In this document: positions 11,999-62,684 of the stretch, piece after piece
Position numbering within the stretch: the first letter of the stretch is position 1
How the letters are laid out: each line of letters starts with the position of its first letter
IMG/VR virus record: IMGVR_UViG_3300027833_003138
Coordinates: 64,001-128,000 of that record
DNA from: a virus
Strand: one strand, 5' to 3'
DNA: 64,000 nucleotides
Program-made: the position numbers and the translations under genes
The notes under the pieces: generated by a model
What the model saw: only the letters and a program-made list of their open reading frames with translations
What the model was told of the DNA's origin: nothing
Databases searched by the model: none

Positions 11999-12028
11999 TT
12001 GCTTTTATACAAGTTGTATGTACACTTT

Positions 12029-13969: not shown

Positions 13970-13985
13970 GACGGTCTTTTGTAAA

Positions 13986-14009
13986 TACACTTAATTGATA
14001 AAAGGTGTA
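13986..14009. promoter_or_regulatory. divergent pair of GTGTA motifs
   Basis: TACAC at 13986-13990 (minus gene) and GTGTA at 14005-14009, 9 nt before ATG 14019. Confidence 0.6.
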
Positions 14010-45521: not shown

Positions 45522-46314
45522 TTACCTTCATTAATACTCTTGACTCTGTCGGGGGAATATCTGAGTAATCGTTCCAGTCTTTAACTGAATCGTTTTTATA
45601 TTTTCCGGTCTTCCACCAATCTCTAAGTATAACTTTAAACTCTTCAAAACTGGAACAATTCAATTTATCTCCAGCTAGAGACTCTATCATTGATGAAGGA
45701 GTAAGTGATCCTCCAGAGGAATTACTAGATACTGTCTGGCTGGATTTATCTATTTCATCGTCTCCCACGATATGAACATTTAAAAAATTTCTTACGCATC
45801 TAACAAAAGCTCTATTGCATGCTATAGTCTCTAAAAACTTCGTAGCAAAGCTGCTAGTGTTGTCTAGAGTGGCGTTAGCCATGTCTTGAAAGATTACTGG
45901 TTCACCAAAGGTTTCATAGTTTGGTAAAAATTTCATTCTGCATACCACTGCAACATGGTTGAGTTCACACCTAACCGTTTCATATGCAACATCCGAAAAG
46001 CCTCTTAATTTTGCAAGCTCCTTGATCCCGCTAAGTTTTATTAATAATTGATAATCTTTTAGTCCAATTATAGATCTAGGCAAATCTTTTTTTCTTAAAC
46101 TAAACCAGGATTTGTTTGGAAAAAGGTTTTCGTCTTTAATCATGGCTCTCCAATTTACAGAGCCATCCTCTGAAAATTCGTAATCTACGTTATCAAGCAA
46201 TCCAAATTCATTTCTTAGAAATTTACCCGGACCGTCTTTGTAGTTTTTAATATAAACTAAATTGCTTTGTTCTTTGTTTTCTGAATTATTTTCTGATGTC
46301 TTTGTTTTTACCAT
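45511..46314 (-). CDS. hypothetical protein, possibly Rad52-like ssDNA annealing fold
   Basis: I.L.GIKELA..RG...A.AT..N...A.NRAF.R.VR..L pattern. Confidence 0.45.
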   Translation of the reverse strand: MVKTKTSENNSENKEQSNLVYIKNYKDGPGKFLRNEFGLLDNVDYEFSEDGSVNWRAMIKDENLFPNKSWFSLRKKDLPRSIIGLKDYQLLIKLSGIKELAKLRGFSDVAYETVRCELNHVAVVCRMKFLPNYETFGEPVIFQDMANATLDNTSSFATKFLETIACNRAFVRCVRNFLNVHIVGDDEIDKSSQTVSSNSSGGSLTPSSMIESLAGDKLNCSSFEEFKVILRDWWKTGKYKNDSVKDWNDYSDIPPTESRVLMKVINS

Positions 46315-47473
46315 GATTTTTGTCGTTATAAATTTTTAGAGTATCAATTTCTTCCCAAAATTCAGGACAGTCTATAACTTGGTCGTGTTCTCCTTCGAGC
46401 TCATTTTTCCAAGCAGCTTTACTGTTGTATATTTGTCCTCCTGATATGATCTTCATTGAATTTTTATAACGAGTATTATCGCATAGTTTTTCAGAATTGT
46501 CAAGGTCTTTTTTAGTTTTTTCTTTTAACAAGGTAATCGGCCAGTCGAAGAATTTTAATCTTAGTTCATTTATTATACTTTCATCTTTGCATAATAGATT
46601 AAATCTAACGCCTCCTTTTTCTAGAGATTTAAAATAACTTTCTTTACTGTCGTGTGATACGAAATAATTTATTCTGTTTATATTTTTACGTATAACATTT
46701 AAGTATCTAATTTTCATTGGTTTGTCGAGAAATATATTACATTTTCTATCGTATGCCCATTTTGCTATATTTTGCTCGTCAAAACATTCATGACCCCATA
46801 TGTTGACGGGTTGACCCTTTGCAAAGCTTGCGGGCATTATATGGTTGGGAACTACGGAAATAGCTGGGATGTGGTATTGAGGCCCTAAATGTAGAGTTTC
46901 TATTTCTGAAATGGTATTTTTGATTTTTAACAATTTTAAAATAGACGAAGCTATTTCCTCAGGTTTAATTAAATTCACCATCTTCGGCTCTTCACTGTCA
47001 GAAAACGACGGCTTTAGCCCGTTCCTGTGGGACTCGATAAGTATCTGGTTTTCTTTGTCTCCCCAATATGGACCACAACACTCTTTAAATAGTACGCTAT
47101 ATAGGCACACTATTTTTTTATTAAAGCCAGAGGCTATATGGGTGCTAAATGAATCATTCCCAAAATGCAAAAGCGAATTCTGTATGATATATGCGGATTG
47201 TTTTATATTTGTTCTTCCGTGCAAATGCTCGCAACCCCTGATTGATTTATCTTCTTTTCCGCCTATTTGTATAACCTTAATTCCTTCGCTATTTAAATGA
47301 GGCAGAATCATTTCCATTACGTCATTATAGTAGTCGTAATTCTTTGCTTGCATTCCACTGCTCGCATGAAGGGTTATGTATTTGTTTTCGGCTATGGGGT
47401 AAAAGCAAGTCTCTATGTGGGGCTTATCTATTTTAACTCCACACGATAAGGCGTATTGTTCGATTAAGTGCAT
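46286..47473 (-). CDS. GT9-like glycosyltransferase
   Basis: K.YDY...V...IQIGG.....L.G.T...QSAY.I....H.G.DS...H.A. Confidence 0.7.
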   Translation of the reverse strand: MHLIEQYALSCGVKIDKPHIETCFYPIAENKYITLHASSGMQAKNYDYYNDVMEMILPHLNSEGIKVIQIGGKEDKSIRGCEHLHGRTNIKQSAYIIQNSLLHFGNDSFSTHIASGFNKKIVCLYSVLFKECCGPYWGDKENQILIESHRNGLKPSFSDSEEPKMVNLIKPEEIASSILKLLKIKNTISEIETLHLGPQYHIPAISVVPNHIMPASFAKGQPVNIWGHECFDEQNIAKWAYDRKCNIFLDKPMKIRYLNVIRKNINRINYFVSHDSKESYFKSLEKGGVRFNLLCKDESIINELRLKFFDWPITLLKEKTKKDLDNSEKLCDNTRYKNSMKIISGGQIYNSKAAWKNELEGEHDQVIDCPEFWEEIDTLKIYNDKNHGKNKDIRK

Positions 47474-49371
47474 AAATTAAATTGTATTTTATCTTTACCG
47501 TTGTGCATGTAATTCAACATTCTTTGCGTCCCTATAAACGGAAGAAACGCTACTTCAAAAAAACCTTTATGATTTCCTTGCCCCTCCATTGATGGCAAAC
47601 TGTCCAGTCCCTTGCTATATGGTATCACTTTATGTATATATGGGTTGCCGTCTAGTATGTCGAAATACTCTGGTTTTGTTGCGAAGTAAATGTTGTAATC
47701 AGGGTAAGTTTCTTTGATGTTTTTTAATAGCGATGTGCATAAGTAGATATCTCCAATGCTTTGGGGCATAGATATCAAGAGCCTGCCTCCTTCGTCGTCT
47801 TTATCTAGAAGCTCTATAAAGTCTATTTTTTGATTTTTTTGATTATCTTGAGTCGCTACCTGTTTGAAGTATTTTAAGACATCCTCTCTTGGCATATTTT
47901 CAGATAGTCTTTTCATCCAATGCTTGTGTCCGTCGTCTGTGCTGTCTAGATCTATTTTTAGTATATTTTTGTATAAGTCTATAACCCATTCTGAGTTATC
48001 TTTAATATTTGGAGGTGTGTAGTCTGCATTTTTTTCTTCTACTTCAAAATTAAAATCCCAGTCAACCTCGGGCATTTCATCTATGATAGACTCCAGCTTC
48101 TTTCCGATGACCTCTATGCTATAATTATTTATTACAAATTCTCTCGATTTCTTGCCCACTTCTTTCACCTTGCTAGGCTTCATTTTGAGAACCTTCTTGA
48201 GTTGATTAGCTATGCTTTGGGGGTTAGTGCTTGCTTTTATAAATTGAGTGCCAGGCTCTCTGTATTCGGTCCAGCTAAGAGGCAAGCTTCCGCTTTCATC
48301 GGTACAACAATCTTCTCCACAGCTGTAATTCGTAACCAGGGTTATAAGCTCTGCTAGTTTAGCTTCCTGAATAGGTATTTCTTGCCCGCCGCTAGTAAAG
48401 GGGTGGCAATAAACATTCATTAAATTATATATCTCGTTTAACTGTTCTTCGGAGACCCCAGCTTTAGTGTTGGTTGTTACTTGAGATTTCTCTGCGCCGC
48501 AAAATCTACAATCCAGATCTTCTTCTTTATAAGCTTTTATTTCGTACTTTTTACAGTTCTTGCAAAAATAAGTCGTAACTACTTTTTCTGGGTCAATGCC
48601 TTTTTCTTTAATTAATCTAGGAATGTCCCAACCCTCTTTCCAGTGAGTATGTAATAATAGTTTAGTTTTAGATTCTGGGTTCTGATTGCAGAATATTTTA
48701 AATCCTTCAATTAAATTTGGAACGCTTTTTCTTAATTGGTTTCTAAAAACAAACCCCACTAAGAAGTCATCTTCTTTTATGTTTTGTTCTTTTCTTATTT
48801 TTAATCTATCTTCATCTTTAAGTTTGAAAAATTTAGATGTATCCAGAGCGCCATGTAAAGTTTTCACATGTTCGTGGCCAAGCCTGTTTAGTTCTTTAGA
48901 TGCGAATGACGCCCAGGAGTAATAGTTTTTTATTTTAGGGGCGAGCTTGACAGCTTCCGGTAGAATGGGTAAACTGTCTAGTGTTGTCCATATCATGCAG
49001 TTAATTTTGTTCCACCACTTCTTTTCTGTATATCCAGAAAAAGCCCAAATATCTTCTATACCTATATATATATCAGGCTTCTCTTCTTCTAGAAATTTAT
49101 CTATAGTTTGCCCTCCGTATCCAGCGCTTCTAGCTAAGCCGGGATCTTCATTTAGCTTGCGCAGCAGGGCTGGATTGTTTGGCAGTGAGCCTTGGCATTT
49201 CCATGGCAGGGTTGAAAGTATCGGGTCTCCCCATTTGATTCCGTTTGAGAATTCAACCAGTTCGTACTTTCCTGTTTTCTCTAAGTGGAGAAGTATATTT
49301 TTAGTATGCTTTCCGAAGCCAGTAAAAGCCTTGCAGTGATTGCTGTGTATTAATACCTTTTTCTTCTTCAT
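47464..49371 (-). CDS. GT4 glycosyltransferase with C-terminal GT9-like domain
   Basis: TGFG, RNQ.RK..P.L..GF, LNEIYN...V...P...G.EIP..EA; C-terminal SIGD......L...K..YP...NPYI. Confidence 0.8.
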   Translation of the reverse strand: MKKKKVLIHSNHCKAFTGFGKHTKNILLHLEKTGKYELVEFSNGIKWGDPILSTLPWKCQGSLPNNPALLRKLNEDPGLARSAGYGGQTIDKFLEEEKPDIYIGIEDIWAFSGYTEKKWWNKINCMIWTTLDSLPILPEAVKLAPKIKNYYSWASFASKELNRLGHEHVKTLHGALDTSKFFKLKDEDRLKIRKEQNIKEDDFLVGFVFRNQLRKSVPNLIEGFKIFCNQNPESKTKLLLHTHWKEGWDIPRLIKEKGIDPEKVVTTYFCKNCKKYEIKAYKEEDLDCRFCGAEKSQVTTNTKAGVSEEQLNEIYNLMNVYCHPFTSGGQEIPIQEAKLAELITLVTNYSCGEDCCTDESGSLPLSWTEYREPGTQFIKASTNPQSIANQLKKVLKMKPSKVKEVGKKSREFVINNYSIEVIGKKLESIIDEMPEVDWDFNFEVEEKNADYTPPNIKDNSEWVIDLYKNILKIDLDSTDDGHKHWMKRLSENMPREDVLKYFKQVATQDNQKNQKIDFIELLDKDDEGGRLLISMPQSIGDIYLCTSLLKNIKETYPDYNIYFATKPEYFDILDGNPYIHKVIPYSKGLDSLPSMEGQGNHKGFFEVAFLPFIGTQRMLNYMHNGKDKIQFNLCT

Positions 49372-49932
49372 TTAAAAAGGAGCTTCGTCATTGCCCGTGG
49401 GCTTTTTAGTTTCCTCTTGTTGGTCTTTTTTATATTTTTGTATGTTTTTGATTTCTTCTCTTCTTCTGTGGGAATACAATTCTTTGAGGTAGAATTTCAA
49501 AAACTGATCAAGATTTTCCACTTCTCCAGGCTCAATAGGTATTCTGAATGACTGATTTCCGTTTCTTGTGAAAGTTATGCCAAAGGCTGGTAGGGTAATA
49601 GAACCGTTCTGCGTTTTTTGCTGCTTATCCCACGGAACAAACTTGATGGACGTTTTGTTTTCTTCGTAGCTGTGGAACGCTGAATATTCGTAACGCTTGT
49701 TTAATGAGCTGATAATTCCGCCAATCTCAAATTCACTAAACTTTAGGTTTATGTTTTTGTCTGGATTGTCTTTATTTCCAGAAAAGTTTCCAGATCTTTT
49801 CTTGTCGTCCCAGCTGTATTGTTGTATTGCACTAACATAAACAACAGGTTCTTTGTTTCTGTTGACTCCGATTTTAAAATTAAATGCGCAGCCTGCGTTT
49901 TTACTGTTTGGTTTGTATAGTGATATGCTCAT
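49372..49932 (-). CDS. probable ssDNA-binding protein (Whirly/PC4-like)
   Basis: YKPN...G.A..F...K....EIG..I pattern and acidic EAPF C-terminus typical of SSB tails. Confidence 0.45.
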   Translation of the reverse strand: MSISLYKPNSKNAGCAFNFKIGVNRNKEPVVYVSAIQQYSWDDKKRSGNFSGNKDNPDKNINLKFSEFEIGGIISSLNKRYEYSAFHSYEENKTSIKFVPWDKQQKTQNGSITLPAFGITFTRNGNQSFRIPIEPGEVENLDQFLKFYLKELYSHRRREEIKNIQKYKKDQQEETKKPTGNDEAPF

Positions 49933-49980
49933 AATATATTATTGATTTTATAAGAGATACTATCCTGGAATCTTTTTTTC

Positions 49981-50865
49981 TCAACTATTAATTTTATCTA
50001 TATGATGGCACCAATCTTCTTCTGAGTATAGGTTGCTGTATTTTCTATAACTAGATGTCCATATGTGATTAGGTAAATGTTTTATTCTAATTATGTCAAA
50101 ATGTTTTTTCATTAATTCTGTGCAATTACTCTCTTTAATTTTGTCATACTTTTTATTGATAGGGTCCCAGTAGGTTTCTATTACGGCTTTACATAATAAT
50201 TGTTCTGGGAATCTTGAGACATTTTTAAACGAGCATAAGGATACAGCTCTCTCGAAAGCCGAGATCATTCGATCTTTCTGTCCAGCTACAATATGATCTG
50301 AAGGGTGGAATTTATTTTCCCTAGAGAATCTAAAATAAATGTTAGAGGTTATTATTTTAAACCAATTATAATTTTTTGTTTTTTCGTTTTTATTGTTGTG
50401 AGTATTGGATTTTAACATATGAACTAGAAGGTCTAGGTTTGGGAAGCTCTCATCTGACCTGACCTTTATACAAAAGAAACCTTTTGCGGCTTTAAGCCCA
50501 TTTAATGTAGTGAAGTGCTGGTATATCCATGGGGCTTGTGCGCCCGGTTTTTTTTGAAATTTTGGTAAGTCTGAGTATTTATTAATTACTATTTTTATTT
50601 TATCTTTATATTTGTCTAGTTTATTTACTTCGTCTTTATCCCAGCAGCTAACTATAACCTCTCCGTATTTTAAATAACTATCTATAGTATTGATTGATCT
50701 ATCGTTTATCGGCCCTTGTATTATTATTGATACAGAGTTTTCTAACTTTTCGAATCTTTTTAGTATTTTTTTTTGTAGGGATAGCTCAAAATTAGCAAAG
50801 CTAGATACGTACTTTAGCTCTTTCCCTGATTTGTCTTTTAATTGGTGCGGGTTCCAGTGATTCAT
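49981..50865 (-). CDS. WavE-like glycan modification protein
   Basis: SIIIQGP...E.I.S.W...Q..TT..GL...K.RSD...HPSD...G...PEQ. Confidence 0.7.
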   Translation of the reverse strand: MNHWNPHQLKDKSGKELKYVSSFANFELSLQKKILKRFEKLENSVSIIIQGPINDRSINTIDSYLKYGEVIVSCWDKDEVNKLDKYKDKIKIVINKYSDLPKFQKKPGAQAPWIYQHFTTLNGLKAAKGFFCIKVRSDESFPNLDLLVHMLKSNTHNNKNEKTKNYNWFKIITSNIYFRFSRENKFHPSDHIVAGQKDRMISAFERAVSLCSFKNVSRFPEQLLCKAVIETYWDPINKKYDKIKESNCTELMKKHFDIIRIKHLPNHIWTSSYRKYSNLYSEEDWCHHIDKINS

Positions 50866-51284
50866 TTTAAATAATCAGAACACAGCCCAAAGCAGGGCGG
50901 CCCTCCATAGTTTCTTGCGTCATCCACAACAAGAACACTTTTATTGCTAACTCTCTTTCCTGGATAAGTCCATACAAAGTTCTTAGAAGTTAATGTGAAA
51001 TCGTCTGATTCATGCCAAAAATAATTTAACACCTTAAATTCGCTTAATAAATCCATGGCTTCTAGGTTTTTACAATGAATCCATAAGTGTCTAAAATTCT
51101 GAATTAGGAATTTCATTGGACACGGATTTTCAGGATTGTCGTGACCAAGCCATAGCTGTTCTTTCGCCCAGACATCGATTTCAACGTCAAACCCCGAGTC
51201 TAGAGCTTCTTGTATGTAGCTTATTGAGTTTTCTCTTTTCTCGTTCGGACCTTCGGTATTGCCTCTATGGGAGATCAGTATCAT
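50862..51284 (-). CDS. glycerophosphodiester phosphodiesterase-like protein
   Basis: MILISHRGN..G...EN...DVEIDVW....LGHD...GLCSDY; start moved to 51284. Confidence 0.8.
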   Translation of the reverse strand: MILISHRGNTEGPNEKRENSISYIQEALDSGFDVEIDVWAKEQLWLGHDNPENPCPMKFLIQNFRHLWIHCKNLEAMDLLSEFKVLNYFWHESDDFTLTSKNFVWTYPGKRVSNKSVLVVDDARNYGGPPCFGLCSDYLK

Positions 51285-51642
51285 CCGTGAAATATTTATC
51301 CCCAATCACTGAGGGCGTTTTGATTACGCAGGTTATAGTATTATCTTCAAGCGGCATGAAATCTGTAGCCTCGTTTTTTTCTATTAAAATAATATCGTCT
51401 TTTTTGTAAATTTCTCCGTTCATTCTTGCTGAGCCCTGTATTATTATCGATAGCTCCTCAGCCTCTTTGTGGACATGCCTATCTTGGTACTCTCCTTTTT
51501 CGTAACTTTTTACGGAAACTTCAAACTCTTTGGTTTTAAATATAGTGGGCGCAAAATTTCCCGCAACCCAACCTCCTTTGAAGTTGTTTAGATTATATTT
51601 TTTCAAGATTTTTATTCGTTCGGGTTTGGAGTGTTTGCCCAT
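51265..51642 (-). CDS. cupin domain protein
   Basis: GW..GNF.P...FEV....Y..G....H.HK...E...I..G; start may be later. Confidence 0.8.
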   Translation of the reverse strand: MGKHSKPERIKILKKYNLNNFKGGWVAGNFAPTIFKTKEFEVSVKSYEKGEYQDRHVHKEAEELSIIIQGSARMNGEIYKKDDIILIEKNEATDFMPLEDNTITCVIKTPSVIGDKYFTDDTDLP

Positions 51643-53033
51643 AGGTCAGGATCCGAATCTTCTCTCCCTTGGTGTTCTAGAAAATACTTTAGGTCCTCTG
51701 GAGTTCCTAGTCCCCACATTTCCGGAATATCAAAGATTTTTATTTTTTTATTATCATTGATTGCTTCATTGTAGACCGGGCAAACGTAAAATTCATTGTT
51801 AACCCTTACGTCATTTTTTATCATCCGCTCTGCATATTTTACGTAATCCGAGCCTTTAGTCCAATAATAAATTCCTACCGTGGCTTTATCGCTGATTGGT
51901 TTCTTCTCTTGAACCTCCGAGACGAAACCGTTTTCATCTAGCTTTGCGTAACTCCATTTTGGGTGAGTTGAATAAAAGGTTAATATGCCCCCGTCAATAT
52001 TATCCCCCACCATCGAGTACATGAATTCATTACTATCCCATTCTACAAACTGATCTGAGTTTGCAATCAGCAAAGGCTCGTCGTTATCGATAAGGCTTTT
52101 GGCTAGTAGGGTTGTGCAGGCCGCACCTTCTGTTACTCCGTTAACCGTTACTATCTCACAATCGGGAGAGATCATTTCCAGGGTTTCTTTTAAACTGTAT
52201 TTGTGATAATGTTCTTCTTGAACTATAAATATATGTTTTGCCTCTATGTTCAAGTTTTCTGTAATTACTTGAATCATTGGTTTTCCCCTCACTTCAATCA
52301 AGGGCTTCGGGAATGTGAATCCAGCCTTTTGGAAGCGCGAGCCTGCTCCAGCCATTGGTATTAGTACGTTCATTTTTCCCCCTTGCCATTTTTGGTTAAT
52401 TTTTGAATTTGCATTTGCTTTGTCTATAGTATATTGTATTTTTGATAATTCGAGATCTTTTGCGTTTGTGACTCCGCATAAATGCGCGCCAGATAGCATT
52501 GCCGCCTTTCTTCCTATGTGAGAATCCTCCACGATGACACACTCTTTTGGTGCTAAACCAAGATTGATCATAGCCTTTAAGTACATTTCTGGGTTAGGCT
52601 TGGAATTTTTCACATCTTCGTTTGTTACATAAAATTCCACATACTCAATCAACCCTTTTCTAAGTAGTATCATTTTGGTTGTCTCTCTGATGGAGTTCGA
52701 GCAAACACACATCTTGAATCCCCTGCTTTTTAGGTTTTTAAATATTTTTATTTGTTCAGGGTCAGGTTTTAATTCTGCGTTTATAAAGTCTATGGTAAAT
52801 TCTTGCTTCCCTTTCCATACTTCTTTATGCATATCTTCAGGCAGACCTTTAAGCTCCGATAGCTTGTTTAGTTTTTTGGCGGTAGGCAGGCCGTCGTATG
52901 TAGATAAATGCTCCTCTCTTTTTATGGCGAATTTTGGATCCAAAGAACTTAGGGATTTATTTAGGCAGTGGTAATGCATATCTCTAGAGTCAACTAAAAC
53001 TCCGTCAAGATCAAATAGTATCGCCTTAATCAT
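51612..53033 (-). CDS. HAD phosphatase fused to BcbE-like nucleotidyltransferase
   Basis: FDLDGVL, CSNS, KPNPEMY, EDS..G (HAD); then LIPMAGAGSRF...PKPLI, TEGAACT, NSDQ, NEFYV.PVYN, LGTPEDL. Confidence 0.9.
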   Translation of the reverse strand: MIKAILFDLDGVLVDSRDMHYHCLNKSLSSLDPKFAIKREEHLSTYDGLPTAKKLNKLSELKGLPEDMHKEVWKGKQEFTIDFINAELKPDPEQIKIFKNLKSRGFKMCVCSNSIRETTKMILLRKGLIEYVEFYVTNEDVKNSKPNPEMYLKAMINLGLAPKECVIVEDSHIGRKAAMLSGAHLCGVTNAKDLELSKIQYTIDKANANSKINQKWQGGKMNVLIPMAGAGSRFQKAGFTFPKPLIEVRGKPMIQVITENLNIEAKHIFIVQEEHYHKYSLKETLEMISPDCEIVTVNGVTEGAACTTLLAKSLIDNDEPLLIANSDQFVEWDSNEFMYSMVGDNIDGGILTFYSTHPKWSYAKLDENGFVSEVQEKKPISDKATVGIYYWTKGSDYVKYAERMIKNDVRVNNEFYVCPVYNEAINDNKKIKIFDIPEMWGLGTPEDLKYFLEHQGREDSDPDLWANTPNPNE

Positions 53034-53846: not shown

Positions 53847-53849
53847 AGG

Positions 53850-54515: not shown

Positions 54516-54538
54516 ACTGGATAGTATTTTTTAATTTA

Positions 54539-55429: not shown

Positions 55430-55955
55430 ATAGCTCTATATCTCTTGCGAAAGATTTCCTGACTATGTCTCTAGTCTCGTTGTCGTAATAATCTCTATAA
55501 TTTTTTTTATCCCTATCTCTTGATCTTGATTTTTTATTGGGGTCAACCTTGATGCCGCAAATATCCCGAAGGGAATTTAACCCTTTTTCTCTATTTTCGA
55601 ATTTGATAATTAAGTCCATTTCTTCATCGGCATAATCAGAGCACTGAAACCCGTGCTCCCAGGGGGCGGGTCTATAATGTTTCAAGAAAAATAACAAACT
55701 TTTTCCAGTTCTTATTCCGTAAGCTTCGTGGAAAACTTGGTGATAAAAAGATATAACTCTATCCCAGGGGTTCCTGACTATTGTAAACTTAAAATAATCA
55801 TCCCATTCTTTATTTAGGTGCTGCTTTATTTGGCTTGCCCTTAGGTGTTTTTGGTGATCTGGCACTAATTGGTCTTTTAGTATTTCATTCTCGATCGATG
55901 TCCCGCTAGTTCTGGGGGCATGAATGAATATTATTTTTTGTTCACTTAAAATCAT
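55413..55955 (-). CDS. sulfotransferase (Sulfotransfer_2-like)
   Basis: IFIHAPRTSGTSI (5'-PSB loop), F.IVRNPWDRVIS.Y (3'-PB), D...YGYEF C-terminus. Confidence 0.88.
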   Translation of the reverse strand: MILSEQKIIFIHAPRTSGTSIENEILKDQLVPDHQKHLRASQIKQHLNKEWDDYFKFTIVRNPWDRVISFYHQVFHEAYGIRTGKSLLFFLKHYRPAPWEHGFQCSDYADEEMDLIIKFENREKGLNSLRDICGIKVDPNKKSRSRDRDKKNYRDYYDNETRDIVRKSFARDIELYGYEF

Positions 55956-56637
55956 TTTTAAGTCTCATCCTAAAATTGGCTTCATCGTTTGCGGCGAATG
56001 TGTCGTTTTTTTCGTCAAGGCAATCTCTTGAATTATTATTGTCTTTATGAGACCAGTGTTTGTGCCTTATTATGATCTTGTCTATGTATTGACATTTATT
56101 TAGTTTTTGTGAAACTTTAGTAAATTCATTGTCGCAATAAAGGGTTATATAGGAAGGGTGATATATATATCCGAATCTGTCATAATATTTCTTTCCTAAG
56201 ATACAGAGTGTGTTTAGGTTTTGCCCTTGGTAGCCATCATTATACCAAAGAACTCCATCTGTATTTGGAAAGAATTTTTTCATATCATCAACTATTGTAG
56301 AATCATAACCAATGAGCTCTGGATGCATGTCGTCGCTTGCGAGTAGGCATACGTCAAAATCTTGATCTTTGGCTCCTGAATTTATTGCGCATATTTTTGT
56401 TGTGAAATTGCTAATTAGGTTATTTTTTACTATCCTATTTTCATTAAATATAATACTTACGTTTGGGAAGGAGTTTATTAAATCGATGGTTGTTTTTTGA
56501 TTCATTGATCTATCATCCTTATCACAGCTGATCACAAACCTAGTTTCTTTATGTGTCGATAGGTTTATATATGACTTTAATACCTCTATGCATTTATTTA
56601 ATCTATTTCTAGTGGGTAATACTATTAATAATTTCAT
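55942..56637 (-). CDS. GT2-like glycosyltransferase
   Basis: PTR.R...D.DD...K..AIN...ASDDM...FGYIYHP.Y...YCD.E...H.H. Confidence 0.8.
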   Translation of the reverse strand: MKLLIVLPTRNRLNKCIEVLKSYINLSTHKETRFVISCDKDDRSMNQKTTIDLINSFPNVSIIFNENRIVKNNLISNFTTKICAINSGAKDQDFDVCLLASDDMHPELIGYDSTIVDDMKKFFPNTDGVLWYNDGYQGQNLNTLCILGKKYYDRFGYIYHPSYITLYCDNEFTKVSQKLNKCQYIDKIIIRHKHWSHKDNNNSRDCLDEKNDTFAANDEANFRMRLKNDFK

Positions 56638-57593
56638 TATAATAAATTGTTTAAAAAATTATTTAATTTAAAATTTTGTTCTTCGTTGTTTATTATCTCT
56701 CTTATTTTTTTAGAGCAATTAAATTGAACTTCATTTCTGAACTCTTTATTTGATAGAAGGAAGTTTAACTGGGATATGTAATCTCCTAAGTCTCTAAATG
56801 TAAAGGCGGTTATTCCCAACTTGAGCCACTGTAGGTAACTCTTTCCTTCTGTCAGGGGCTCCCAGAAGAAAACGGGCCTACCTTTTGCCATGCTTTCTAT
56901 AACTGCGAAGCCATAACCCTCTAACCTCTTAATGTGTAGGGTTGCACAACTTTTATTCATTATGTCGGACGTTTCTGCTTTTGTCTTATCTTCACATAAT
57001 ATATAGTTTGCTACAGTTGATTTTGTTATTTTGTTATAACATTCAAAATCTTCGGGGAAATTATTTTTATAATCGCATATATAAGTACCTATAATGTCTG
57101 AATCGCTAGACCCTTCGTATGAAAACATATCATAATCTATCCAGGGTCTATAATGAAAGTAATGTTTATTATTTTTTTCACAAAGCTTTGCGGCAAGTTG
57201 ATCTGCGGGCATATAGTTTTGTATTATATCCCAAGGGTATGCGGTGTCCCAATAATCGTTCCCGCTGTAGAACGCTAATTTAGCACCCCACTTTTTGGCC
57301 TCTGGCCATAATACATTTAAAACTTCAAATTGATTTTCGAATGCGGTCACGAAGATAACCTCTGGCTTTATGTCAAATATTTCCTCCTTACTTGCGTAGA
57401 TTGTATTTTTTGCGAAGCCGTACTTTTGTGTGGACTCTTTAGTGTGGGATTCGTTCCATGCCCAGCGTTGAGGTGGAAATTCTGATATTCTGTAATCTTT
57501 TGATGGCACTACTAGCTGGTGTCCAAGACTCTCAACACTTAAGCTTAAATTTTTAGTTAAAGTTATATGTATGTCTGGAAAGAATATTTTCAT
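56637..57593 (-). CDS. GT4-like glycosyltransferase
   Basis: EGYG..V.E.MA.GRPV signature; start moved to ATG 57593 overlapping upstream stop. Confidence 0.75.
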   Translation of the reverse strand: MKIFFPDIHITLTKNLSLSVESLGHQLVVPSKDYRISEFPPQRWAWNESHTKESTQKYGFAKNTIYASKEEIFDIKPEVIFVTAFENQFEVLNVLWPEAKKWGAKLAFYSGNDYWDTAYPWDIIQNYMPADQLAAKLCEKNNKHYFHYRPWIDYDMFSYEGSSDSDIIGTYICDYKNNFPEDFECYNKITKSTVANYILCEDKTKAETSDIMNKSCATLHIKRLEGYGFAVIESMAKGRPVFFWEPLTEGKSYLQWLKLGITAFTFRDLGDYISQLNFLLSNKEFRNEVQFNCSKKIREIINNEEQNFKLNNFLNNLL

Positions 57594-58381
57594 TAAGCTA
57601 TTGTAGATATATGTCCCCTGTTTCTCCATTTTTTGCCATCTTTACATAGGATCGTTTTTATATTACCAAAGGAATTTGTACCTGTCAGTTGTTTATATTT
57701 ACATTGTTGTATGTTCAGGCACGTTGTTATTACGGACTCGGGGACTTTAATCATGTATTCTGGGTACCCACTCTCCCACATAGTTTGTATAGATGTGGTC
57801 ACGCTAGACAGGCAGTTGGCATATTTGCTCATTTGGTCTGGGCTTCCTACTGCTAATTGGTCATTAACTTGATTTGGTAGCGAAGCTTTTTCATGCACAA
57901 AACTAAAGCTAAATTCATTTTTCATTTCTTTTTCATGATCATAAATATTGTCACTTTCGAATAACGGCAATCTAATGTGTTTGTTTTTTAAGCAATCTTT
58001 TATTTCGTGAGTTTTTATTTGCTCTAGTACTTGTATGTCCGGCCTTAGCCTTATAACTAAGTCATAATTAATTTTTTTCAACGAAGCGTAATTGTGAAAC
58101 ATCGTGTTTGAGGCCTTTACCCCTACCAGCATCGGAATTAGTCCGGGGCCTGGCTCGCAGGGTAAGTTCTTTGTTGGATCCAATAGCTTCATTGTTTTCT
58201 CAAAATTAAGTATTTCCCGTTTTACAGGGTTGTAATAATTAGCAAAGTCGTAAGACGGTTGGTCTTCCCAGGTTGTAAGGAAGATATCTGGCCTTAATGG
58301 CCAGATTATGTTTTTTGTAATTGACTCCACGCAATGCTTCCAGTCTCCGAGTTTGCCGCTAAATAATAATGCTGTTCTCAT
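57593..58381 (-). CDS. putative glycosyltransferase-like protein
   Basis: A...SG.L...DIF..TW...YD.VIR.RPD...NDQ.A.G...Y...PE pattern common in viral glycan loci. Confidence 0.6.
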   Translation of the reverse strand: MRTALLFSGKLGDWKHCVESITKNIIWPLRPDIFLTTWEDQPSYDFANYYNPVKREILNFEKTMKLLDPTKNLPCEPGPGLIPMLVGVKASNTMFHNYASLKKINYDLVIRLRPDIQVLEQIKTHEIKDCLKNKHIRLPLFESDNIYDHEKEMKNEFSFSFVHEKASLPNQVNDQLAVGSPDQMSKYANCLSSVTTSIQTMWESGYPEYMIKVPESVITTCLNIQQCKYKQLTGTNSFGNIKTILCKDGKKWRNRGHISTIA

Positions 58382-59328
58382 TCTGTGATATACTCTGTTA
58401 TGTCTCTCTGCGCTACAAGCTGCTCTATATTATCCAACAGGAAGGGGTAGAGCTTGTACGCCGGATTCCTTAATGTGTTTTTTATTATTCTAGACGCGCT
58501 TTTTATGTCATAATGCAATGGGAATACAAACTTTTCGTTAAATAACCAACGTATAAGATAAGAATATTGTACGGTTCCGTATTGCTCGCAATATTTTGAA
58601 AAGGTGAACGTGGGCTTTCCTAGGTGGTAGGGTATATATCTAACCCCAGAATCAATACCAAAGAAAGCTATACATTTACTTGATGCGTAAAATATTTCCT
58701 CAAGAGATAGAGAGAGAAAAGATATGTTTTCTAAGTTTTCGTTCATCAGTTTTGAGTATTTGTGCTCCGACTTTTCGTCGTAAAGTATTACTAGGTGAAA
58801 GTCTTGTATTATGTTTTTTATTAATTTATTTATATACCAATCTTCCATGTTAGAGTCAGCACCGTCCCTGGCATATAGATGTGCAAGCACAAATTTGTCA
58901 GGGAGCTCTACTCCGGTTTTTGGTTGAACCTGTGGCGCGGGGAAAAAATTAAAATTCTTGAACCAGTCGTACTCATGATTTAGCCATTCCAGTGAGTCTA
59001 TATGAAGATCGTAAAACTTGTCATAAGAGGATTCCATCCTTGCTCTAATCTCATCTGGGACATTATTTATATTTCCGGGATGAAGTTCTTCGGGAAAATT
59101 AGAACATTTGATTTTGAATTTATTGTATTTTTTGTCCTTAATAATAAATGTGTTTTCAAAATGAGACGGCCACATGGCGTTTAGTATATTTGATTGGGCT
59201 CTGTTTCCTTCTGTATCTGAAAAAAGATCTATAGTACAATCTGGGTGAAGCTGTTTTATTGCAGGTATAAACCTGTTTGCTGCAAAATGGTCGCCCAAAC
59301 CCCCTTCCATCCTTACGGAAACTCTCAC
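58378..59328 (-). CDS. GT9-like glycosyltransferase
   Basis: GGLGD......AIK..HP and F.GIDSG......LGKP. Confidence 0.7.
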   Translation of the reverse strand: MRVSVRMEGGLGDHFAANRFIPAIKQLHPDCTIDLFSDTEGNRAQSNILNAMWPSHFENTFIIKDKKYNKFKIKCSNFPEELHPGNINNVPDEIRARMESSYDKFYDLHIDSLEWLNHEYDWFKNFNFFPAPQVQPKTGVELPDKFVLAHLYARDGADSNMEDWYINKLIKNIIQDFHLVILYDEKSEHKYSKLMNENLENISFLSLSLEEIFYASSKCIAFFGIDSGVRYIPYHLGKPTFTFSKYCEQYGTVQYSYLIRWLFNEKFVFPLHYDIKSASRIIKNTLRNPAYKLYPFLLDNIEQLVAQRDITEYITE

Positions 59329-59633
59329 GACACCCTCCCGTTTACTAGAACCTTGCCCTCTATCACAAATGTTTTTAGCTGGGTTAACATCTTGTTTGCA
59401 GTCTTTCTTCTTTTTATGTGGTTGTTTGTGGAAAGCCTCTTCATGCTTGCCGATATCTTGCCGTAGGACATGCCCCCTAGGTCTTCTGCTATTTTGTTAT
59501 TGGAAAAGAATATAGGTTTGCCGTGCCCCCCTTTCGTCAATAAATAGCTGTATACTACTAAATCGTTTCCTATTAATCTTCCACTAATCACATCTTCTTG
59601 TATTACCATTGGTATCTGTATAAATTTTCTCAT
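59325..59633 (-). CDS. winged helix-turn-helix DNA-binding protein
   Basis: VY.YL......F.S...IA..LG.S...I....K.L.....I.R; start moved to ATG 59633 after a promoter. Confidence 0.7.
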   Translation of the reverse strand: MRKFIQIPMVIQEDVISGRLIGNDLVVYSYLLTKGGHGKPIFFSNNKIAEDLGGMSYGKISASMKRLSTNNHIKRRKTANKMLTQLKTFVIEGKVLVNGRVS

Positions 59634-59640
59634 GCCGACA

Positions 59641-59669
59641 ATAGTACCATACGATTTGTTTTTCGTCAA
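59641..59669 (-). promoter_or_regulatory. sigma70-type promoter TTGACG-N17-TACTAT
   Basis: Minus strand: TTGACG aaaaacaaatcgtatgg TACTAT tgtcggc ATG; heads the glycan operon. Confidence 0.7.
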
Positions 59670-59771
59670 GTAGAATTCATAAAAATCAATTCTAGTAGTT
59701 CAAAAAATTGAACGATGTTAATAGTATAGAGTTCCTTACTATATTTTTTATTAATATATAAATATAAGATA

Positions 59772-59800
59772 TTGACATTATTGAGTTTTGATGATATACT
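59772..59800 (+). promoter_or_regulatory. sigma70-type promoter TTGACA-N17-TATACT
   Basis: TTGACA ttattgagttttgatga TATACT gttctc ATG. Confidence 0.85.
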
Positions 59801-59806
59801 GTTCTC

Positions 59807-60103
59807 ATGAAATTTATAGATTTAAGTGATGATAGATACTTTTTAATAAAGTGTTCTGACTGGTCGGTGATTCTATCCGCCGAAGATGAGGTCGAAGCCT
59901 GCACCGTAGCCTTAACGGGAATGCTGGAAAAAAGGGGTAAGCAGTTAAAACTCTCATCAGTAATGATATCCAACGAACTAAAGCATGATGTCATGGATGA
60001 AGACTATGATGAGCTAGTAGCTTACCACTCTGTATCAAGAATGCTCGCCAATGCAGGAATGCACGAGCTTTCATCTAATATGAAAAGTATATTTGGAGCA
60101 TAA
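59807..60103 (+). CDS. hypothetical protein
   Basis: 98-aa ORF 6 nt after the -10 box. Confidence 0.7.
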   Translation: MKFIDLSDDRYFLIKCSDWSVILSAEDEVEACTVALTGMLEKRGKQLKLSSVMISNELKHDVMDEDYDELVAYHSVSRMLANAGMHELSSNMKSIFGA

Positions 60104-60108
60104 AAAAT

Positions 60109-60657
60109 ATGAAGATAATAGGAATATCGGGGCTGGCGAGGTCGGGAAAAGATTCATTTTATGAATTTTGTAAACCATTACTGGATCAGGAAGGAATAGG
60201 GCACAGGAGAATGGCATTCGCGGACGAACTGAAAGAAGAGGCAGATACTATCTTGAGTAAATACGTAGGCATATCAGCATTTACTGAAGATACCGAAGAA
60301 AAGAAGATTATACGCCCGCTTCTAGTTACCTACGGCACACACATAAGAAGAAAGATGAACCCAGATTGCTGGATAGAGAAAGTGAGAGGCAAAATGAGGC
60401 GCCTTGAAAAAAGCGAAGAAATTGTCTTCATAACGGACGTTAGATTCAAGAACGAAATAGAATGGGTGCACAAAGAAGGGGGGTCTTCGATACATGTATC
60501 TAGGTCCGGCATAGTCCCCCCAAACGAAGATGAAAAACAGAACGATCCCATCCTAAGAAAAGAATCTAATTTCAGAATAAAATGGAATAACTTTGACACA
60601 GAAGATATGATCAAGATAAACAACGAGGTAAATGAAATACTAAAATCTATACTATGA
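60109..60657 (+). CDS. deoxynucleoside monophosphate kinase (T4 gp1-like)
   Basis: IIGISG.ARSGKD, AFAD.LK, R.LL..YGT...R....W, ITDVRF.NE. Confidence 0.85.
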   Translation: MKIIGISGLARSGKDSFYEFCKPLLDQEGIGHRRMAFADELKEEADTILSKYVGISAFTEDTEEKKIIRPLLVTYGTHIRRKMNPDCWIEKVRGKMRRLEKSEEIVFITDVRFKNEIEWVHKEGGSSIHVSRSGIVPPNEDEKQNDPILRKESNFRIKWNNFDTEDMIKINNEVNEILKSIL

Positions 60658-61256
60658 ATAATTTATCTGATTTAGAAATAATAAACGAAATCAAGGAAGA
60701 TAAGAACGTTGAGGAGAATTTGCAAAATTTAGTCGAAAGACATAGCGGTATTTATCTAGACATGGTTAATGCCTACTCATCAAACGGCAACCCCTACATA
60801 GACAGGTCTGAGCTGGTAAAAGACAAGGAGTACAAGATATACCTAGCGGCGCTTAATTTTGACGAAAGTAGAGGTGCTAAATTCAGCACTTACCTAGGGA
60901 ACGAAACTAAATGGTCTTGCCTAAACACTTACAATAAAAACAAAAGAAAGCCGGTATTCAACTCTGAATATATAGAAAATATGCCCGAAAACCCAAATTT
61001 TAACGAAGAGAATATGGCTGAATCACTAAAGAGAGACATGTTTGATAAAGTTTTATCAATCATCAAGCATCACCCCGACAAAAGAGTTGAAAAAATATTT
61101 AAAATGAGATATATTATAGGAACAAAAAACAAAGTTATGGCATGGAAAGACATAGGAAACAAAATGAAATTAAGTATACAAGGCTGCATAAACATTCACA
61201 ACTCAGCGGTTGTTCACGTCCAAGAAGAATTGAAAGGGGAGTTAAGTTTTGAATAA
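60654..61256 (+). CDS. sigma70-family RNA polymerase sigma factor-like protein
   Basis: Region 2-like A..FD..RG.KFSTYL and region 4 HTH (IF.MRY......W..IG..M.LS......IH..A). Confidence 0.75.
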   Translation: MNNLSDLEIINEIKEDKNVEENLQNLVERHSGIYLDMVNAYSSNGNPYIDRSELVKDKEYKIYLAALNFDESRGAKFSTYLGNETKWSCLNTYNKNKRKPVFNSEYIENMPENPNFNEENMAESLKRDMFDKVLSIIKHHPDKRVEKIFKMRYIIGTKNKVMAWKDIGNKMKLSIQGCINIHNSAVVHVQEELKGELSFE

Positions 61257-61629
61257 GTTCATAGGGCTAGGCAATCTAACGAAAGATCCAGAGCTTAAAG
61301 AGATTAAATCAGGAAAGTCGGTTTGTGTATTTAGCATAGCCATAAATAATAAAGTTAACGACTCTGTTACATTTGTTGATGTAGAGACATGGAATAAGTC
61401 TGCAGAAAATTGCGCAAGGTTCCTCAGTAAGGGAAGGAAGGTTCTAGTAGAAGGGAGGCTTCAATTAAACACCTGGAACTCCAAGAGTGGAGAGACTAGA
61501 AGTAAGTTGTTTTGTATAGCCGACCTAGTAACCTTCTTGGATAAATCTAGCGAGAATCAAGAATCAAGCAACAACCAACAGCAATCCGCACCAATCGAAG
61601 AAGATGAATTTGCGGACATTCCATTCTGA
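61249..61629 (+). CDS. ssb: single-stranded DNA-binding protein
   Basis: N.....GNLTKDPEL...F.IA.N...W...AE....L.KG..V.VEGRL....W and DIPF tail. Confidence 0.93.
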   Translation: MNKFIGLGNLTKDPELKEIKSGKSVCVFSIAINNKVNDSVTFVDVETWNKSAENCARFLSKGRKVLVEGRLQLNTWNSKSGETRSKLFCIADLVTFLDKSSENQESSNNQQQSAPIEEDEFADIPF

Positions 61630-62684
61630 TGAACAAATTAATATTCAAAGCCCCGCTAAACTCTTTGTCCTTCGGCAACGTTTCCTTTAACATACTTAAG
61701 GAAATTTTCAAAAAAGGTATAGACTTGGCTCTATTTCCTATTGGCAAGGTTGATATTAACTCGTTTGGGGAACAGAGCGAGGAATTCAAAAACTGGCTAG
61801 AAGACTCCATAAACAACAGGTTTACAAAATTAAACAAAGACACAACAACATTGCAAATGTGGCATCTAAACGGCTCTGAAAACAGGATAAGTAGAAAACA
61901 AATACTTTACACCTTTTTTGAGCTCGATAAACCTACAGGCAGTGAGATTAATCTTGGATCTATGCAGGATAAGCTTGTGTTTAGTAGCTCTTATGCTTCG
62001 GATAAATTCCCGGGCAGCAGCTTTGCGCCGCTAGGTTTTGATGAAACGTTTTTCAAAACAGACAAGCCCTACATGGGAAACAAGATTCACTTTGGATTAA
62101 TGGGAAAGTTTGAAAAAAGAAAACACACAGCCAAGTTAATAAAAGCCTGGATAAAGAAATACGGAAACAACTACAACTACCAACTAACATGTTGCGTAAC
62201 CAACCCGTTTTTCAAAAAAGAGCAGATGGAATCTATCTTGAGAGAAACGCTGGGAGGAAAGGCCTATGGAAATATAAACTTCCTTCCGTTCCTACCGCAA
62301 AACGCACAGGTAAATGACTTCTTGAACTCTATAGATATTGATATAGGAGGAATGAGCGGAGCGGAGGGCTGGAACCTTCCTTCTTTTAACGCATCCTGTT
62401 TGGGCAAGTGGAGTATCGTACTTAACTCAACGAGCCATAAAGATTGGGCGACCAAAGAAAACTGCATATTAGTAGAGCCAGACGGAAAAGAAGAAATATA
62501 CGACAACATGTTCTTCCATAAAGGGGCTGCGTTTAACCAGGGAAGCATGTATACCTTTGATGAAGAAGAGTTTGTATCCGCAATGGAAAAGGCTGAATCA
62601 ATTTGCAGAAACGAGAACAATGAAGGTATCAAACTTAGGAACAAATTCACATACAAGAACACACTAGAAAGGATACTAGAATAA
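61629..62684 (+). CDS. GT4 glycosyltransferase
   Basis: GKFEKRK and SGAEGWNLP...A..LGK signature. Confidence 0.8.
   Translation: MNKLIFKAPLNSLSFGNVSFNILKEIFKKGIDLALFPIGKVDINSFGEQSEEFKNWLEDSINNRFTKLNKDTTTLQMWHLNGSENRISRKQILYTFFELDKPTGSEINLGSMQDKLVFSSSYASDKFPGSSFAPLGFDETFFKTDKPYMGNKIHFGLMGKFEKRKHTAKLIKAWIKKYGNNYNYQLTCCVTNPFFKKEQMESILRETLGGKAYGNINFLPFLPQNAQVNDFLNSIDIDIGGMSGAEGWNLPSFNASCLGKWSIVLNSTSHKDWATKENCILVEPDGKEEIYDNMFFHKGAAFNQGSMYTFDEEEFVSAMEKAESICRNENNEGIKLRNKFTYKNTLERILE

Follow-up and report, generated by a model that had tools for sequence, protein, structure and literature searches.

A glycan-assembly operon built in three layers, whose products would act in the cytoplasm, is carried by a clade of uncultured marine myoviruses, and we describe it here from one member, the phage of IMG/VR virus record IMGVR_UViG_3300027833_003138 (140,314 bp, rated 79% complete). 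The window under analysis is a stretch of 64,000 nucleotides, bases 64001-128000 of that record; positions refer to it unless stated otherwise, and genes are named by their lower coordinate. The layers are a conserved core around a split glycosyltransferase (GT), a mobile donor cassette and a hypervariable slot, and we are highly confident of this anatomy, early-type promoters included. Together the genes make up a self-contained set of soluble enzymes, sugar-nucleotide step included, that would be able to assemble a methylated and sulfated heteroglycan in the cytoplasm. As for the acceptor of such a glycan, a phage protein is our tentative answer, held at a little under an even chance, and a coat on the virion is the single most likely reading. 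A sequence-only reading of this DNA had proposed a proteoglycan-like coat made by soluble enzymes; the soluble enzymes and their capacity for a sulfated, methylated product are supported by the present analysis, whereas the proteoglycan-coat interpretation is supported only in part.

The phage is a myovirus: an 861-amino-acid (aa) protein encoded just past the end of the window hits the tail sheath family phrog_15433 (E 2e-47), and over its C-terminus it is 31-34% identical to sheaths of cultured phiKZ-like phages. Megablast of the 16.7-kb region found no GenBank phage match, and tblastn of the core fusion protein (47464) against GenBank phages gave only GT4-domain matches of 24-26% identity in three Synechococcus phage records. 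Relatives encoding the core fusion number 130 in IMG/VR; 80 of these loci were fetched, the window proteins were placed on them by tblastn, and all locus counts below refer to these 80. Family searches covered three genomes (G000, G001 and G002), the present record and two relatives rated 100% complete (184 and 214 kb). The features of the region are as follows.

45511-46314, minus strand: candidate Rad52/Sak-like single-strand annealing protein (SSAP), by fold; last gene of the operon, non-glycan
46286-47473, minus strand: GT9 C-terminal lobe (residues 1-185) and a second Rossmann-like domain (190-395), by PF01075 and fold
47464-49371, minus strand: 635-aa fusion of GT4 (with a CxxC...CxxC insert), DUF4214 and a predicted GT9 N-terminal lobe, by Pfam and PHROG
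49372-49932, minus strand: conserved 186-aa protein with an acidic C-terminal tip like that of single-stranded DNA-binding protein (SSB), by alignment
49981-50865, minus strand: WavE-like putative GT (PF07507, E 3e-10)
50862-51305, minus strand: mini-GDPD-like protein of 147 aa, donor cassette (phrog_34507)
51265-51642, minus strand: 125-aa protein that travels with the donor cassette (phrog_24762, E 2e-33)
51612-53033, minus strand: HAD-IA domain, beta-phosphoglucomutase-like, fused to a sugar-1-phosphate nucleotidyltransferase, by Pfam
53034-53846, minus strand: GT2 enzyme, variable slot (PF00535, Glycos_transf_2, E 1e-5)
53850-54515, minus strand: S-adenosylmethionine-dependent methyltransferase, CmcI/rhamnosyl O-methyltransferase-like, variable slot, by Pfam
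54539-55429, minus strand: compact, anchorless GT47/exostosin-like GT of 296 aa, variable slot (PF03016)
55413-55955, minus strand: Sulfotransfer_2 enzyme of 180 aa, variable slot (PF03567, E 2.5e-11)
55942-56637, minus strand: GT recognized at the PHROG level only, variable slot (phrog_14945, E 2e-19)
56637-57629, minus strand: weakly supported GT4-like candidate, variable slot (motif LEGYGFAVIESMAKGRPV; TreT match, E 0.022)
57593-58381, minus strand: semi-conserved 262-aa protein, left anchor of the variable slot (phrog_13607)
58378-59328, minus strand: GT9-like candidate, by the motifs GGLGD and GIDSG
59325-59633, minus strand: first gene of the minus-strand operon (weak DnaD-like PHROG match, E 7e-4)
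59641-59669, minus strand: sigma70-type promoter driving the glycan operon (TTGACG and TACTAT boxes, 17 nt apart, with an extended TG)
59772-59800, plus strand: divergent sigma70-type promoter of the plus-strand operon (TTGACA-17-TATACT, with TG)
59807-62684, plus strand: early operon of five genes
59807-60103, plus strand: 98-aa gene, by a codon-position test
from 60109, plus strand: T4 gp1-type deoxynucleoside monophosphate kinase (DNMK), by family match
60654-61256, plus strand: sigma/activator-like gene
from 61249, plus strand: SSB, by family match
61629-62684, plus strand: clade-conserved GT4-like enzyme (phrog_2170; PDB GT group 1 chain, E 2e-5)

The minus-strand unit runs from 59633 down to 45511 and packs 17 genes into 14 kb, with neighbours that overlap or are separated by gaps of no more than 48 nt. 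The non-glycan genes within the span are 59325, 59807-60103, 60109, 60654, 61249, 49372 and 45511.

The core comprises 49372, 47464, 46286 and 45511, which occur in fixed order in 76-80 of the 80 loci: the fusion 47464 and its neighbour 46286 are in every locus, and 45511 and 49372 are in 76 each. Relatives of the fusion are 53-99% identical across its full length. The assignment of 46286 to GT9 made in the sequence-only reading is borne out by a Glyco_transf_9 match above cut-off (E 1e-7, 32 bits against 22, residues 29-145), of which there is one per genome in the three genomes, and by its fold. The AlphaFold2 model (pLDDT 91.3) places a GT9 C-lobe, starting at the inter-lobe linker, in the first domain, and its best fold matches are WaaC (Z 17.0, root-mean-square deviation 2.7, 151 residues aligned), WaaF (16.9), the Veillonella GT9 structure 3tov (16.9) and TibC (15.4), with the next GT-B folds at Z 11.7 or less; Foldseek concurs with GT9. 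By sequence the GT9 of the core is nearest to WaaF (E 2e-5), and TibC gave no sequence-level match to it. For the second Rossmann-like domain the ESM Atlas returned no usable match.

The missing half of this enzyme appears to lie in the adjacent gene. The GT4 call for 47464 (Glycos_transf_1 and DUF4214 in Pfam, phrog_2170 in PHROG) stands, as does that for 61629. Near the C-terminus of 47464, residues 532-583 weakly match the N-terminus of NCBIfam heptosyltransferase III (E 0.003), and the region 528-587 weakly matches residues 8-67 of 3tov (E 0.05). These matches and the modelled partner suggest that the last ~130 residues of 47464 are the GT9 N-lobe, and that a single GT9 enzyme would be split over two genes, in contrast to the members known so far. 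When the two products were docked, the ipSAE score was 0.86 against 0.01 for the best control, a value that may reflect likeness to solved single-chain GT9 structures; the mark used is reached by 58 of 80 solved complexes and by 2 of 110 mismatched pairs. The docking runs share at least 86% of their contacts, with partner pLDDT of at least 83. Four cysteines (C270, C273, C288 and C291) are invariant in the GT4 domain of 47464; the CxxC-14-CxxC insert that they form (residues 270-291) resembles a zinc ribbon and has weak matches of L37a type.

A search of 185,579 species genomes with the core fusion gave only two matches, both on short contigs of metagenome-assembled genomes (MAGs) and probably of phage origin. 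Distant relatives carry 60654, 61249, 61629 and 62684 immediately ahead of the core genes, all in one direction; comparison of gene orders indicates that in the lineage of the window these two halves are inverted relative to each other, with further genes inserted between them. The fusion evolves slowly and is specific to phages. Kept in the manner of core phage genes and lacking a cellular counterpart, the core GTs suggest an acceptor that is inherited with the phage.

The second layer is the donor cassette, which consists of 51612, 51265 and 50862 and is adjoined by the WavE-like gene 49981. The WavE-like, mini-GDPD-like and HAD-nucleotidyltransferase genes are confined to closer relatives (the WavE-like gene to 34 of the 80 loci). 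Domain matches of 51612 to HAD_2 (E 3e-30), NTP_transferase (E 1.5e-10) and the beta-phosphoglucomutase family mark it as the predicted donor-synthesis step. Its counterparts in Synechococcus myoviruses (S-CAM9, B3/B23 and S-PRM1) are 57-61% identical and stand among GT genes. The residues HRGN, EN, ExD and H are invariant in 50862, which has weak GDPD matches in the PDB (E 0.08); homologues 44-50% identical to it adjoin the HAD-nucleotidyltransferase gene in cyanophages B23 and S-CAM9 and in five MAG contigs. It is this joint travel, in cyanophages and MAG contigs alike, that marks the cassette as mobile. 51265 also co-occurs with the HAD-nucleotidyltransferase gene, in contigs L085 and L086. 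A GmhB-HddC-type heptose activation was considered for 51612 and dropped as unsupported, since its HAD domain is of subfamily IA and beta-phosphoglucomutase-like and no GmhA-type isomerase was found in the three genomes.

In one related locus (L005) the WavE-like, mini-GDPD and 51265 genes are 63-74% identical to those of the window, against 91-96% for the flanking genes, and this drop across 49981-51642 points to a recent exchange of the cassette inside the operon. The contigs L085-L091 from unrelated MAGs have counterparts, 63-71% identical, of the phage's donor cassette or of its core fusion. Their bins are labelled Acholeplasmataceae, Hermodarchaeota, Nitrospiraceae, Pseudomonadales, Woesebacteria and Coraliomargarita, and they are probably mis-binned phage DNA.

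The third layer is a slot whose borders are the homologues of 57593 and 51612. Eight loci have nothing at all in it, and 16 carry 3-6 genes there, over 2.4-4.9 kb; the 77 open reading frames (ORFs) of the filled loci fall into 34 families. Pfam matches of 29 representatives include GT2, GT7, GT25, GT31, GT32, RXYLT1-like and CST-I/MptE-like enzymes and many methyltransferases, as well as a CMP-sugar-synthetase type (KdsB/NeuA-type cytidylyltransferase, CTP_transf_3), an HpcH aldolase and a polysaccharide pyruvyltransferase. The cargo in the window (GT2, methyltransferase, GT47, sulfotransferase and two further GTs) is common to only 3-6 near relatives, and its GT2 gene 53034 to four. Most of the families first read from the letters were recovered: GT2 for 53034, Methyltransf_24 (E 9e-13; RMNT_CmcI E 9e-5) for 53850, the WavE-like enzyme and donor cassette described above, and the exostosin-like gene 54539 overlapping a sulfotransferase gene (55413) by 17 nt.

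The Exostosin_GT47 match of 54539 (E 1e-10; 41.8 bits, cut-off 33.4) is limited to the C-terminal lobe, profile positions 154-279 of 293. No type II membrane anchor is present in it (the maximum hydropathy of a 19-residue window is 0.51), and its family forms 34 homologue clusters, all with PF03016 and all environmental, several of them from Tara. The sulfotransferase 55413 scores 44.6 bits against a cut-off of 22, and both of its motifs for binding the sulfate donor 3'-phosphoadenosine-5'-phosphosulfate (PAPS) are intact (5'-PSB IHAPRTSGTS, 3'-PB VRNPWDRVIS). A search with it matched only two uncultured huge phages, at 28% identity. Sulfotransferase genes number 7 in this genome and 1 and 10 in the other two genomes compared.

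The product of 55942 is confirmed as a GT by its PHROG family and found no Pfam match. Two further GT calls fared less well. For 56637, proposed as GT4, there is an E-x7-E-type motif and the TreT match, with nothing from Pfam or PHROG and a profile-profile probability of 0.2% to the 61629 family. The proposed GT9-like gene 58378 (16 loci) does carry motifs of the GT9 type, an N-terminal GGLGD and a GIDSG within its C-half, but had no Pfam, NCBIfam or PDB match, and hhalign to the GT9 C-lobe alignment gave 6%. The slot anchor 57593 (24 loci) is possibly a distant WavE-like enzyme, with an hhalign probability of 1.6% to the WavE-like alignment and nothing usable from a PDB profile search. Such low profile-profile probabilities argue for motif-level resemblance only in 58378, 56637 and 57593.

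By a hydrophobic-segment check no protein of the cluster has a transmembrane helix. The 140-kb record encodes no polytopic membrane protein in its 183 ORFs, whose products each have at most two hydrophobic segments. That no membrane GT, flippase or polymerase is visible was thus correctly noted earlier, but the conclusion then drawn, that modification of the envelope is less likely for want of them, fails. Assembly of the core of lipooligosaccharide (LOS) or lipopolysaccharide (LPS) on lipid A takes only peripheral GT9, GT4, GT25 and WavE-type enzymes together with the host exporters MsbA and Lpt, so a missing flippase fails to exclude it. The enzymes might accordingly remodel the host envelope, acting at the cytoplasmic face of the inner membrane on a lipid A-core of LOS type or on another glycoconjugate, with the altered molecule exported by MsbA and Lpt of the host. 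Such an early change of the surface could, for example, exclude other phages or keep progeny off debris. On the evidence this is a tentative possibility with the chances clearly against it.

Several observations fit it well. A GT9, GT4 and WavE-type set without dedicated export genes is what the operon holds, the WaaF-like character of the GT9 and the GT25, CST-I-like and CTP_transf_3 genes of the relatives add to this LOS/LPS-core profile, no flippase of the phage would be needed along this route, and the promoters are of an early, sigma70 type. The donor cassette is also common to cyanomyovirus clusters that the literature reads as cell-surface modification (PMC12801897). Against remodelling of the envelope stand the core GTs, which are strictly syntenic in the relatives, whereas host-specific acceptors should drive turnover. 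Glycan genes, with the late-class clusters and the candidate PAPS synthase among them, take up about a quarter of the genome, an outlay that seems excessive for a transient surface change during lytic growth. Nor were enzymes of lipid A or of Kdo (3-deoxy-D-manno-octulosonate) seen in the cluster.

The 137-bp divergent control region holds two sigma70-type promoters. The plus-strand one agrees with the consensus at 11 of 12 positions, and the ATG of 59807 follows six bases past its -10 box; on the minus strand an in-frame ATG at 59633 lies seven bases past the -10 box and is most likely the start of 59325, which would then be leaderless. This minus-strand layout, a TTGAC-N17-TAnnAT box followed by ATG, is kept in 17 of 18 distinct upstream regions of relatives while the surrounding sequence drifts. 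In most close relatives 49372 has a sigma70-like promoter of its own. Across the genome, a promoter with ATG 4-10 nt downstream precedes 23 called ORFs, all of them within the small-gene regions (7.9-43 kb and 63.7-69.8 kb) and outside the structural modules. A generic sigma70 scan of the region showed no enrichment (61 sites against 62 expected from shuffles), so the argument is carried by the conserved, positionally fixed promoters.

A second motif, GTGTA, marks a different class of genes. It occurs 9-28 nt 5' of start codons at 13 sites in the whole genome, where 2.4 are expected, and precedes the genes for the tape measure, sheath and fibre proteins, the candidate PAPS synthase gene and a DUF2827 cluster, as well as the first genes of the genome's other glycan island. 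The sites in the window include 8869(-), 20880(+) and 63036(+). The sigma/activator-like protein 60654-61256 may be its reader.

By association, then, the operon probably belongs to a host-polymerase class, early or middle if sigma70-type promoters mark early genes as we infer, and the two other glycan clusters to the virion-gene class. The operon had been placed next to the tail module, and its adjacency to tail-fibre genes is real, although the two converge, the promoters are sigma70-type and not GTGTA, and replication genes are interleaved. The leaderless sigma70 promoters, together with the interleaved SSB-like and Rad52-like genes, argue for an early-class operon that is not part of the tail module.

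At the control region, a minus-strand ORF at 59692-59994 (100 aa) was examined as a gene and rejected as the shadow of the plus ORF 59807-60103. In 19 related sequences the segment 59995-60103, present only in the plus ORF, has 321 third-position substitutions against 102 and 50, and codon periodicity is absent from 59692-59806; since the bias reaches 60103 and is lacking in 59692-59806, the real gene is the plus ORF.

The interleaved genes deserve comment. The AlphaFold2 model of 45511 (pLDDT 77; median identity 64% in its 76 loci) has a beta-beta-beta-alpha core. Foldseek listed RAD52 alone in its top 12 rows (best E 2.5e-3), and 15 of the top 17 ranks went to RAD52 or Mgm101. The VIA-wide comparison gave RAD52 (Z 7.5), Mgm101 (6.2), Sak (6.0) and Red-beta (5.6); the ESM Atlas pointed to Sak/Rad52, as a lead only, and a PDB profile search gave nothing usable. 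With scores that are middling and matches that are consistent, we regard 45511 as a candidate Rad52/Sak-like annealing protein. The acidic tail of 49372 ends in ...NDEAPF, and tails in the family alignment end in PF, W or F. Pfam and PHROG scans found no family for this protein, which from its tail probably belongs with replication and recombination genes. The two may form a recombination pair, SSAP and SSB-like partner, flanking the core GT genes.

This setting raises the possibility that the conserved GT-B enzymes glycosylate the phage DNA against restriction. The order in distant relatives would suit it (60654, SSB, GT, 62684, SSB-like, GT4 with GT9 N-lobe, GT9 C-lobe and SSAP, all in one direction), as would the early-class promoters and the T4 gp1-type kinase at 60109, and the glucosyltransferase genes of T4 likewise sit among replication genes. 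There are phage GTs known to attach diverse glycans to DNA, according to Pyle et al. (2024) as cited in PMC12619734. The genome itself argues otherwise. A ThyA-like hydroxymethylase (PF00303), ThyX (PF02511) and a C5 methyltransferase (PF00145) were not found in the three genomes; a search for TET/JBP (PF12851) had no match either, but the control genomes likewise gave none, so that this search is uninformative. Palindromes containing C/G are avoided, with observed/expected ratios of 0.51 for ACGT, 0.63 for CGCG and 0.65 for both CCGG and GGCC, and 12.5% of 6-mer palindromes fall below a ratio of 0.6 compared with 0.45% of non-palindromes. This avoidance argues that the cytosines are ordinary and exposed to restriction. 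GCGC, GTAC and TGATCA are also avoided genome-wide, and GATC and AATT are not. With some ten GTs, a sulfotransferase and a methyltransferase, the set moreover exceeds any known DNA modification, and DNA is an improbable acceptor.

The genome has three glycan clusters, the operon described here, another island and a DUF2827/GT34/GT32 cluster, over which roughly two dozen GTs are spread; glycan genes amount to about a quarter of the genome. The third cluster follows directly after the tail sheath gene (L002:6507-11732; genome 132507-137732), in the order DUF2827, GT34, DUF2827, a GT32-type gene and GT34, with GTGTA before its first gene, and is absent from the related loci that were fetched.

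Just before the sheath gene, behind GTGTA, the fibre-like genes 63053 and 64678 adjoin each other. The former encodes seven perfect tandem copies of a 19-aa unit, HRLLSGISGSLGNNNDGET; the latter (genome 128678-129868, L002:2678-3868) encodes about seven copies of an 18-aa unit like LHEHINSLSGDLEATGSH. Two further, large fibre proteins of 1036 and 653 aa are encoded on the minus strand at 8888-13990 and share their N-terminal regions and repeats of 'GDSWRFGDMRM' type, and the larger shows, by eye, three internal repeats of ~100 aa.

These fibres are the source of the SG/TG bias that had been taken as a glycosylation sequon. Genome-wide the observed/expected ratio of [ST]G is 1.21, and it is high only in the fibre proteins 8888, 12029, 63053 and 64678, where the excess is that of tandem repeats. 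The bias thus gives no independent support to a glycosylation site, and [ST]G was dropped as a sequon.

A literal proteoglycan-like system would build a sulfated, glycosaminoglycan-like chain on Ser-Gly sites of virion fibre proteins. The overlap of a GT47-like with a Sulfotransfer_2 gene, the SG-rich repeats of 63053 and 64678 and the GT7, GT31 and RXYLT1-like enzymes in the slots of relatives would all be in keeping with it. The GT47/sulfotransferase pair, though, is found in five near relatives only, as accessory cargo of the slot and not as conserved machinery, and the cluster proteins of the window include no GT64, xylosyltransferase, GT43 or linker enzymes, GT7 and GT31 being present only in the slots of other phages. 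The GT47 match covers a single profile lobe, Golgi-type anchors are absent and the SG excess is a matter of structural repeats, so that the proteoglycan analogy is very improbable.

More room is left for an acceptor of another kind, such as an oligosaccharide that stays free or is secreted, a small molecule or glycolipid of the cytoplasm, or a host protein during takeover. Expression of early class, as the promoters suggest, and wholly soluble enzymes would be compatible with it, and no function is assigned to the second domain of 46286 or to the small conserved proteins 51265, 62684 and 57593. Exposed surface glycans, on the other hand, typically combine a conserved base and a hypervariable periphery, and glycosylation of host proteins normally takes one GT and not ten. 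We consider such an acceptor rather unlikely.

In the reading that we favour, the core enzymes (61629, the GT4 of 47464 and the split GT9) would lay a conserved base of two to three sugars on an acceptor inherited with the phage. The slot enzymes would then add a strain-specific outer part, methylated and sulfated, with PAPS supplied by the phage's own candidate PAPS synthase or by the host. The acceptor would be one or more phage proteins, probably virion proteins, and the product, along with what the two late-class glycan clusters make, would give a variable anionic coat. Several lines of evidence speak for a phage protein. In the models the GT9 C-lobe is nearly as close to TibC, a protein heptosyltransferase, as to WaaC/WaaF; the virion-gene motif stands before genes of two of the three glycan clusters and before the candidate PAPS synthase gene; each of the three genomes examined encodes at least one sulfotransferase; all enzymes are soluble, in a record with no polytopic membrane protein; and the DNA route is unsupported.

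Other results weigh against it. The families of the operon (GT9, GT4 and WavE, and in relatives GT25, CST-I-like and KdsB/NeuA-type cytidylyltransferase) are the classical toolkit of the LOS/LPS core, and the donor cassette is shared with cyanomyoviruses, where it lies in accessory, host-like gene regions. GTGTA precedes no gene of the minus-strand operon, whose promoters place it in the sigma70/leaderless class of the small-gene early regions and not in the virion-gene class. The core sits between SSB-like and Rad52-like genes and, in distant relatives, follows SSB directly. No acceptor motif was found, the [ST]G excess being a repeat artefact, and the clade is without a cultured relative in the megablast and tblastn searches of the region and core fusion. 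The full proposal, that the clade coats its own virion proteins with a heteroglycan made from a split GT9/GT4 base and a swappable periphery and sulfated via a phage PAPS synthase, is therefore put forward as possible, and on present evidence it is doubtful.

If the virion coat is real, a bacteriophage would for the first time be seen to make a sulfated glycoconjugate, and the coat would be a bacterial-virus counterpart of the glycan coats of giant viruses. Marine phage particles would then bear variable anionic glycans, with a bearing on host recognition, aggregation with marine polysaccharides, grazing, decay and the fractionation of viromes. If the host surface is remodelled instead, the operon would be an unusually large receptor-editing kit. 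Either way, its anatomy offers experimental handles in the 47464/46286 pair, the donor cassette and the slot. To our knowledge, no phage GT cluster has been described that joins a split-enzyme clade core to a slot with dozens of alternative tailoring enzymes and a capacity for sulfation. Among the papers found by a search on phage sulfotransferases, glycosyltransferases and virions, titles and abstracts show no apparent phage sulfated-glycan system; the role of phage sulfotransferases has been called unclear (PMC10580990), and so has that of four core GT families in a lineage of large aquatic phages (PMC12619734).

Parallels to parts of the operon are found in several known systems. T-even DNA glucosylation likewise employs GT-B enzymes encoded among early replication genes; here, in contrast, no hydroxymethyl-pyrimidine synthase was found in the genomes compared, and palindrome avoidance suggests unmodified cytosines. 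The bacterial inner core of LPS/LOS (WaaC/WaaF of GT9, WaaG of GT4, and WavE) shares the peripheral, soluble families and the conserved inner and variable outer part. The operon differs from such a locus in its split GT9 fused to GT4, in the absence of lipid A and Kdo genes and in being phage-specific and of replication type. TibC/Aah have a GT9-like fold and glycosylate Ser of repeat-rich proteins in the cytoplasm; the C-lobe of 46286 resembles TibC and phage proteins in BFVD are annotated Aah/TibC, but the Cys4 cluster lies here in the GT4 domain and not in the GT9 part.

Among phages, the cyanomyoviruses S-CAM9, B3/B23, S-PRM1 and S-SCSM2R share the HAD-nucleotidyltransferase and the mini-GDPD-like gene among their GT genes, whereas their clusters, labelled 'cell wall synthesis and modification', lack both the core of GT4-DUF4214-GT9 N-lobe and GT9 C-lobe, apart from the GT4-domain matches already mentioned, and the sulfotransferase 55413. 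For cyanophage GT clusters, modification of the surface or of DNA has been speculated, and a set of 13 GTs has been described as perhaps the largest in any marine phage (PMC12801897, 2025). The mycobacteriophages, as in the work of Freeman and colleagues of 2023, reportedly decorate their own structural proteins with soluble GTs and sometimes methyltransferases. Their glycans are placed at the C-termini of capsid and tail tube subunits in the summary given in PMC12619734. The present system likewise consists of phage-encoded soluble GTs and some methyltransferases that vary between related phages and would act on the phage's own proteins. It differs from theirs in its approximately ten GT units, sulfotransferase and nucleotide-sugar step, and in an early-type operon interleaved with replication genes. 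Giant viruses, with the fibril glycan clusters of the Megavirinae and the capsids of chloroviruses, assemble heteroglycans in the cytoplasm independently of the host and with nucleotide-sugar synthesis of their own, and we know of no sulfation machinery described for them. They infect eukaryotes and have no split GT9 core; what they have in common with the myovirus clade described here is virus-encoded heteroglycan genes arranged in clusters that vary from clade to clade.

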